DNA of 30,959 nucleotides from a virus (IMGVR_UViG_2531839474_000010:1-30959); one strand, 5' to 3'; counted from the stretch's first letter, positions 9,504 through 9,613 are shown. Notes: a model not told the origin generated them from the sequence alone. Made by a program: numbers and translations.

Positions 9504-9613
9504 AAGTTTTAATTTATACGCTTGCGTATTGATGGTCAAAACACGTTTTGCTATTGATTGGATTAATACGCATTGCTATTATCCATTCATTGTAATACCA
9601 ATAGGAATTGATA
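9504..9613. promoter_or_regulatory. Putative right operator region with divergent pRM-like and pR-like promoters
   Basis: Perfect palindrome ATACGC-TT-GCGTAT (9516..9529); ATTGAT motifs at 9527, 9554 and 9606; GCTATTG motifs. Candidate pR: TTGATT (9554..9559), 17-nt spacer, TATTAT (9577..9582). Candidate pRM on the minus strand: TTGACC (9539..9534) and TATAAA (9518..9513), implying a near-leaderless cI transcript. Confidence 0.5.

Follow-up and report, generated by a model that had tools for sequence, protein, structure and literature searches.

In lambda, OR1 and OR2 lie over PR, OR3 lies over the −10 element of PRM, and OR2 sits ~42–44 bp upstream of the PRM start; cI is preceded by a weak PRM −10 of the TAGATT/TAAATT type, placed 6–7 nt from its ATG, and has no Shine-Dalgarno sequence. 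The operators of phage 434 follow a logic of contacted outer bases and a variable center. A different switch, made up of PaaR2, YdaS and YdaT, has been described in the CP-933P prophage of E. coli O157:H7, where PaaR2 is a protein of ~15 kDa noted to have no sequence similarity to lambda CI (PMC8630535, PMC9986795). In that prophage, 5′ RACE and N-terminal sequencing showed the paaR2 mRNA to be leaderless, and four 18-bp inverted repeats were reported, two of them with only one half-site (PMC8630535). HK022 carries a distant extra operator ~300 bp downstream of OR (PMC8053113).

Here we analyzed a 30,959-bp stretch of DNA, referred to as the window, which is an E. coli lambdoid prophage. Its 1.2-kb cI–cro segment is 99.9% identical to that of a dog E. 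coli isolate and is also carried by the phage isolates 4A7, Lambda_4C10, Perceval, D2 and PhiR30_1; of 5,426 complete E. coli genomes, 718 contain the full cI–cro module at a coverage of at least 80%. We consider it likely that positions 9504–9613 are the right operator/promoter region of this prophage, built like that of lambda, leaderless cI included. The initial annotation had already proposed a right operator here, and gene context, repeated sites and relatives all support that assignment. The immunity type appears experimentally uncharacterized; in a full-text search (subscription journals outside its coverage), we found no papers on these operator sequences or on the BTP1 operators, and no published operator or start-site coordinates for BTP1/ST104-type immunity.

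Genes of the immunity region and their counterparts in described switches

The 110 bp at 9504–9613 are the gap between two divergent genes, a cI-type repressor and a cro of the YdaS family. The repressor gene (8811–9503, minus strand, 230 codons including the stop) encodes an N-terminal HTH_3 domain and a C-terminal Peptidase_S24 domain (Pfam), belongs to PHROG 4, transcriptional repressor, and carries the C-terminal motifs SAGPG, GDSM and KRL; the closest solved structure to its N-terminal domain is the 434 repressor (E = 1.6 × 10−5). Cro (9614–9841, plus strand, 75 aa) matches Pfam PF15943 with 54.6 bits (cut-off 30) and resembles the Xylella Xfaso1 Cro (3bd1). The N-terminal domain of cI and Cro are 32% identical (BLASTP), with recognition helices that read GVAQPTIWR and GVAQPTVWR, respectively, and this shared helix fits competition between the two proteins for the same sites. 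Downstream of cro lie a YdaT-family gene in the cII position (9866–10411, plus strand, 181 aa; Pfam PF06254, 103 bits against a cut-off of 21), assigned to PHROG 163, CII-like activator, and then O and P (Pfam, PHROG). This arrangement of a divergent HTH and S24 repressor and cro, followed by a cII-position gene and replication genes, is the gene context of a lambdoid OR.

The prophage around this core showed further features. Immediately downstream of cI, where lambda has rexAB and BTP1 has bstA, is a gene for a 535-aa SIR2_2-domain protein (7097–8704, minus strand), with a full-length match to the PADLOC candidate defense family PDC-S25 (E = 1 × 10−235) and ThsA-like SIR2 similarity. The slot differs among copies of the immunity region, with phage 4A7 carrying an ASCH-domain gene and a hypothetical gene instead. 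The cI gene itself is mosaic: the S24-encoding part (8811–9262) is matched at 92–96% identity in ~1,500 additional E. coli genomes and phages, in which the N-terminal domain (9263–9503 in the window), cro and operators are different, implying that recombination joined the two parts in the linker, near 9262. An IS3-family element (12153–13366, with an orfA/orfB transposase) directly follows the P-like gene (11424–12101), and the terminase small- and large-subunit genes (13719–15952) start ~350 bp beyond it. No nin-region, Q or lysis genes were present between the replication and packaging genes of the window, so that the prophage looks deleted and is probably defective.

The locus shares with lambda a divergent cI (HTH and S24) and cro, three pseudo-palindromic sites, and matching OL/PL sites. 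It differs in that its sites are 18 bp of the form AATA-N8-TATT, spaced 25 and 25 bp, whereas those of lambda are 17 bp, spaced 24 and 23 bp. Neither the repressor nor Cro is related in sequence to its lambda counterpart, Cro here being of the YdaS family and all-alpha-like, and a YdaT-family protein and a SIR2 gene take the places of cII and rexAB.

With CP-933P, the locus has in common a YdaS-family Cro and a YdaT-family CII analogue (Pfam), a short divergent intergenic region with PR and PRM (97 bp there, 110 bp here), and 18-bp inverted repeats that are also found at a PL. However, PaaR2 is followed by the toxin–antitoxin pair paaA2–parE2 in CP-933P, whereas an HTH and S24 repressor is followed by SIR2 here, and the CP-933P repeat consensus, GTTTAGTAA, is unrelated to AATA-N8-TATT. 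Even the two YdaT proteins match only distantly (phmmer E = 4 × 10−4 over ~80 residues, against the CP-933P YdaT 8bt1). With repressor type, downstream gene and operator consensus all differing, we rejected the assignment of this region to a CP-933P-type module.

A candidate YdaT site was considered separately. The sequence TTGATAATGACAAATCAA (9608–9625), located at an ATTGAT hexamer and spanning the cro start codon, is one mismatch from the published CP-933P YdaT site, TTGATT-N6-AATCAA. The two YdaT proteins are only distant matches, and the sequence is absent at the aligned position in YdaT-bearing relatives (L085–L101) and is kept in near-identical E. coli copies only, and we rejected it as a YdaT site; the match probably reflects chance and coding constraint.

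Two other described phages match in part. The sites here resemble those of 434 in the logic of their bases; however, 434 sites are 14 bp of the form ACAA-N6-TTGT, and the 434 recognition helix reads QQSIEQL against AQPTIWRL here. The C-terminal S24 domain of HK022 CI is clearly homologous (SAGPG, GDSM and KRLQ motifs), which explains why the ST104 gene was annotated as similar to HK022 cI. As the N-terminal domain and Cro of HK022 are unrelated, we rejected HK022 as the characterized prototype, and its operators, the extra one included, do not apply here.

Switch components are also shared with the P22-like Salmonella phages BTP1, ST104, SE1 and ST160 and with Klebsiella phage RAH1. In these phages the recognition helix is identical and cro is homologous, the three operators and the PRM and PR hexamers recur, and cI again starts 7 nt from the PRM −10; BTP1 likewise has an accessory defense gene, bstA, downstream of cI. 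They differ in host genera and virion modules and carry a lambda-like CII rather than YdaT, and the OR3 core of BTP1 is not a perfect palindrome.

Repeated sites at OR and OL and the predicted promoters they overlap

The repeated unit in 9504–9613 is an 18-bp pattern, yAATA-N8-TATTr, which occurs in three copies spaced exactly 25 bp apart (centers at 9522.5, 9547.5 and 9572.5). OR3 (TTATA-CGCTTGCG-TATTG, 9514–9531) overlaps the PRM −10, OR2 (AAACA-CGTTTTGC-TATTG, 9539–9556) overlaps the PR −35 and abuts the PRM −35, and OR1 (TAATA-CGCATTGC-TATTA, 9564–9581), an exact AATA-N8-TATT, overlaps the PR −10. In OR2 the right half alone fits the consensus, the left half being a poor match. Three pseudo-palindromic sites with one consensus, a bit over two helical turns apart, are characteristic of a lambdoid OR, as is the recurrence of the OR consensus at a left operator over PL. 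We observed this recurrence 2.7 kb from OR on the far side of cI, where the left operator is expected: OL1 (CAATA-GCAATGGC-TATTG, 6789–6806) overlaps the PL −10, and OL2 (CAATA-GCAATTAG-TATTG, 6814–6831), 25 bp from OL1, overlaps the PL −35. A possible OL3 (ATATA-CTTGTTCT-GATTG, 6842–6859), read from the sequence alone, is a weak match 28 bp from OL2. An extra half-site, CAATAGC (6778–6784), 11 bp from the left half of OL1, falls near the PL start point; relatives showed none at the corresponding position.

The exact motif AATA-N8-TATT has three occurrences in the 30,959 bp, which are OR1, OL1 and OL2. A looser form, AWA-N8-TATTR, gives 12 matches in the window against 2.4 expected, eight of the 12 falling in OR or OL. 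Given that the pattern was derived from this same sequence, independent support comes from relatives, many of which are closely akin to one another.

Promoters were predicted by consensus scan, which returned one per strand in 9504–9613. On the plus strand, the PR −35 (TTGATT, 9554–9559) is supplied by the right end of OR2 and is separated by a 17-nt spacer from the TATTAT (9577–9582) of an extended −10, TG-C-TATTAT (9574–9582), derived from the right half of OR1; the predicted PR start falls at ~9589–9590. On the minus strand, PRM combines a −35 (TTGACC, 9534–9539) with a −10 (TAAATT, 9511–9516) across a 17-nt spacer. The initial annotation had named TATAAA as the PRM −10. This hexamer is present (9518–9513, minus strand) and overlaps TAAATT, but as a −10 it would have a 15-nt spacer and lack the final T of the hexamer, and TAAATT, 2 nt nearer cI in the same AT-rich block, is the better −10. 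At the left operator, the sole promoter-like site is a TG-extended PL (6788–6816, minus strand), consisting of TTGACT (6816–6811), a 17-nt spacer and TATTGT (6793–6788), and it is covered by OL1 and OL2 as PR is covered at OR. The predicted promoters are placed as in a lambdoid OR, with PR overlapped by OR1 and OR2 and the PRM −10 by OR3. When the cI ATG is taken as the start, OR3 is centered at ~−19 and OR2 at ~−43/−44, and OR1 is centered at ~−17 from the predicted PR start.

We compared this region across relatives at two distances. Among near copies, 80 near-identical IMG/VR copies and the window together comprised 34 different intergenic sequences, and 48 haplotypes were distinguished across a 518-bp region. 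Recurrent polymorphism in these 48 E. coli haplotypes fell in the OR2–OR1 spacer (9557–9562) and past the PR −10 (9583–9585 and 9593), and at lower frequency in the OR1 center (9569–9571); the outer half-site bases had no recurrent variant, only two singleton changes. We identified distant relatives by tblastn and by scanning genomes with the cI N-terminal domain, and they came from more than 15 enterobacterial genera. They include phages BTP1, ST104, SE1 and ST160 (Salmonella, P22-like) and RAH1 (Klebsiella), whose cI N-terminal domains are 86–88% identical, and prophages at 61–95% identity from Kluyvera, Citrobacter, Enterobacter, Yokenella, Pluralibacter, Raoultella, Dryocola, Siccibacter, Buttiauxella, Proteus, Providencia, Morganella and Serratia. 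Across these relatives the AQPTIWR recognition helix is invariant, and a homologous cro co-occurs with cI.

An alignment of 31 distinct intergenic regions from these relatives contained invariant or near-invariant blocks at 9511–9518 (AATTTATA), 9525–9529 (GTATT), 9537–9541 (C-AAA), 9550–9556 (GCTATTG), 9566–9569 (ATAC) and 9572–9582 (ATTGCTATTAT). These blocks are the half-sites and promoter hexamers, whereas the inter-operator spacer and the operator centers vary freely. At OR3, for example, TTATA and GTATT are invariant in all 31 and the center is variable. The PRM −10, TATAAATT, is nearly invariant, reading TAGATT, the lambda PRM −10 hexamer, in two relatives, and the TTG of the PRM −35 is kept in all 31. 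The extended PR −10 is invariant in 30 of the 31; at the PR −35, TTG alone is conserved, the last three bases being polymorphic even among E. coli copies. Relatives also carry the exact motif at OR1 and in pairs 25 bp apart located 0.9–3.2 kb downstream of cI, and these pairs persist whatever accessory genes intervene.

The gene that follows cro varies among relatives sharing cI, cro and operators, being either of the YdaT family (50–68% identical to that of the window) or a lambda-like CII, as in BTP1, ST104 and Klebsiella RAH1. Such alternation on the same cI, cro and operators indicates that the establishment regulator is exchanged independently of the immunity module.

The initial annotation had read the region through a perfect palindrome, ATACGC-TT-GCGTAT, and three ATTGAT motifs. 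The palindrome lies exactly where it had been placed (9516–9529) and forms the core of OR3, but the operator unit is the 18-bp site that encloses it. The ATTGAT hexamers are likewise present (plus strand, at 9528, 9553 and 9607), but with unconserved ends they do not amount to a motif: the copies at 9528 and 9553 are the TATTG ends of OR3 and OR2 plus two unconserved bases, and the third, at 9607, lies beside the cro ribosome site and is unconserved. It could be argued that the palindrome, being perfect, serves another regulator as an independent site, or forms a hairpin, and that ATTGAT is a real repeated recognition element, given that three copies of that hexamer arise in only 5 × 10−5 of shuffles of the 110 bp and that three further copies occur at OL, spaced 25 and 28 bp. 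We regard this as extremely improbable. A perfect palindrome is not significant on its own here, as the window holds 66 perfect 6-(0..4)-6 inverted repeats (~0.23 per 110 bp) and chance alone produces one in 19% of shuffles of the 110-bp region; similarly, some hexamer is found three times in 9% of shuffles. A hairpin is precluded by the 2-nt loop. BTP1, Huaxiibacter, Proteus and Morganella lack the perfect symmetry (cores of relatives: BTP1, CGCTTGAG; Siccibacter, CGCATGCG; Proteus, AAGTTTGAG) while the flanking TTATA and TATT stay invariant. The last two or three bases of ATTGAT vary even among near-identical E. coli copies (ATTGAT, ATTGCT, ATTGCC, ATTGTC, ATTGAA), and the copies at OL are again the TATTG ends of 18-bp sites. 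A second perfect 6-2-6 repeat, CAAAAC-AC-GTTTTG (9537–9550), which had been overlooked, spans the PRM −35 and the OR2 left half; its position 9549 is T, A, C or G in relatives, so its symmetry is unconserved.

Reading the 18-bp sites as the operators, we infer that cI dimers, and Cro dimers with the same helix, would bind the three pseudo-palindromes, mainly through contacts to the outer AATA/TATT bases. Occupancy of OR1 and OR2 would cover PR, which is predicted to drive cro, ydaT, O and P, and occupancy of OR3 would cover the −10 of the leftward maintenance promoter PRM, while OL1 and OL2 would cover PL. As OR2 lies ~43 bp upstream of the PRM start, repressor bound there could activate PRM, as in lambda. 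Opposite affinity orders of CI and Cro, and activation by CI from OR2, are putative, the shared recognition helix being their sole support.

The start codon of cI and its transcript

The ATG of cI was located at 9503–9501, as the initial annotation had it, and is separated from the PRM −10 by the 7 nt at 9504–9510 (minus strand). The length of this segment is fixed and its sequence is free: the gap is 7 nt in 30 of the 31 relatives and 6 nt in one, yet reads AAAACTT, TAAACTC, TGGGGGT, CCGAGAC, CGCGTAC and others. Immediately ahead of the ATG, the cI strand has a pyrimidine in 31 of 31, which fits the usual Y(−1)R(+1) preference of start sites. No Shine-Dalgarno sequence precedes cI, with no AGG, GGA or GAG within 28 nt upstream of its ATG; cro, by comparison, has AGGA (9603–9606, plus strand) 7 nt before its ATG, with AGG conserved. 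The lack of a Shine-Dalgarno sequence and a −10 hexamer at a fixed distance from the ATG are hallmarks of a leaderless mRNA.

With PRM 7 nt from the ATG and no Shine-Dalgarno sequence, the maintenance transcript should start at 9503, the A of AUG, or one base upstream at 9504. A −10 at 9516–9511 puts the default +1 at 9504 (U), making a 1-nt leader (5′-UAUG) as likely as a true 5′-AUG. A cI mRNA that is leaderless or has this 1-nt leader, and is translated as such, is the best reading and is well supported by inference from the 7-nt gap and the absence of a Shine-Dalgarno sequence; the near-leaderless cI of the initial annotation agrees with it. In a BTP1 lysogen, a single start site was reported for cI–bstA transcription (PMC7067206), its coordinate being absent from that paper and from the supplementary files searched for PMC7067206, PMC5856525 and PMC6333337.

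Translation could instead begin at an in-frame TTG (9539), from a leadered mRNA starting further upstream, to give a 242-aa repressor. The reading frame is open from this TTG, a TTG at −12 codons with an open frame is found in 30 of the 31 relatives, and the BTP1 RefSeq CDS begins at the equivalent TTG. We nevertheless consider such a start very unlikely. TTG 9539 is the −35 TTG of PRM and falls in frame because of fixed promoter geometry (6 + 17 + 6 + 7 = 36 nt), and it has no preceding Shine-Dalgarno sequence. The 12 “codons” coincide with operator and promoter, change at all three codon positions in relatives, and show non-conservative replacements (TI, IF, QL), whereas protein conservation begins exactly at MKKETL or MKTT. 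In Pluralibacter, a 1-nt deletion breaks the upstream frame; with the frame open in 30 of 31, however, the argument from frame conservation is weakened, and the case against TTG rests on the substitution pattern and promoter geometry. Annotation and structure agree with the ATG, cI of ST104, ST160 and 4A7 being annotated from it and the 434 repressor alignment starting at residue 4–7.

In the BTP1 record (NC_042346.1), the annotated cI CDS begins at a TTG that precedes the conserved ATG by 36 nt, and the stretch concerned (2465–2500) is the OR3/PRM region. On the chromosome of Salmonella D23580, which carries BTP1, the annotated cI spans 378838–379563, and the counterpart of window position 9503 is 379527, again 36 nt within the gene. 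This annotated cI is probably 12 codons too long.

A separate branch of the family, represented by Fraca and ASU11 (66–74% identity in the N-terminal domain, same recognition helix), keeps OR1- and OR2-like AATAG-N-CTATT sites and has a canonical GGAGG ~8 nt before the cI ATG. In this branch cI is probably not leaderless, from which it follows that a leaderless cI is not universal in the repressor family.

A conserved element in the cro leader and the distribution of the immunity type

Downstream of OR1, the cro leader contains a yAATAC element (9593–9598), which lies 8 nt ahead of the Shine-Dalgarno sequence of cro and at ~+5 to +10 of the transcript predicted for PR. ATAC (9595–9598) is invariant in the 31 relatives, position 9593 toggles between T and C as in yAATA, and the 18-mer that begins there (TAATACCAATAGGAATTG, 9593–9610) scores 7 of 8 against the operator pattern. 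The element could serve as a fourth, weak operator or belong to the region where translation of cro is initiated. The conservation, the score and the precedent of four 18-bp inverted repeats reported in CP-933P (PMC8630535) would all suit a switch with four repressor/Cro sites rather than three, in which yAATAC acts as a fourth half or weak operator adding repression of PR. We consider this unlikely, though not negligibly so. Distant relatives have not kept the right half, AATTG, the element is spaced 29 bp from OR1 rather than 25, relatives have no counterpart downstream of PL, and the conservation could instead reflect cro translation initiation, the element being fixed 8 nt before the Shine-Dalgarno sequence. 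The narrower proposal, a fourth half-operator in a four-site switch of two full and two half sites, seems to us somewhat more doubtful again; if true, it would add a layer of PR control missing in lambda and echo the four repeats of CP-933P. We also considered RNA pairing of the leader (9591–9598) with 9645–9652 and rejected it, as the partner is unconserved in relatives.

Under the preferred three-site reading, the region is an ordinary lambdoid right operator and leaves the understanding of lambdoid switches unchanged. The immunity type it represents is common, occurring in E. coli and also in Salmonella (BTP1 of epidemic ST313, and ST104), Klebsiella, Enterobacter, Proteus and others. A defined operator and a corrected cI start would improve the annotation of these phages and prophages, and the operator would predict which such prophages are homo-immune. 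The cI transcript would add another probable case to the leaderless repressor mRNAs.
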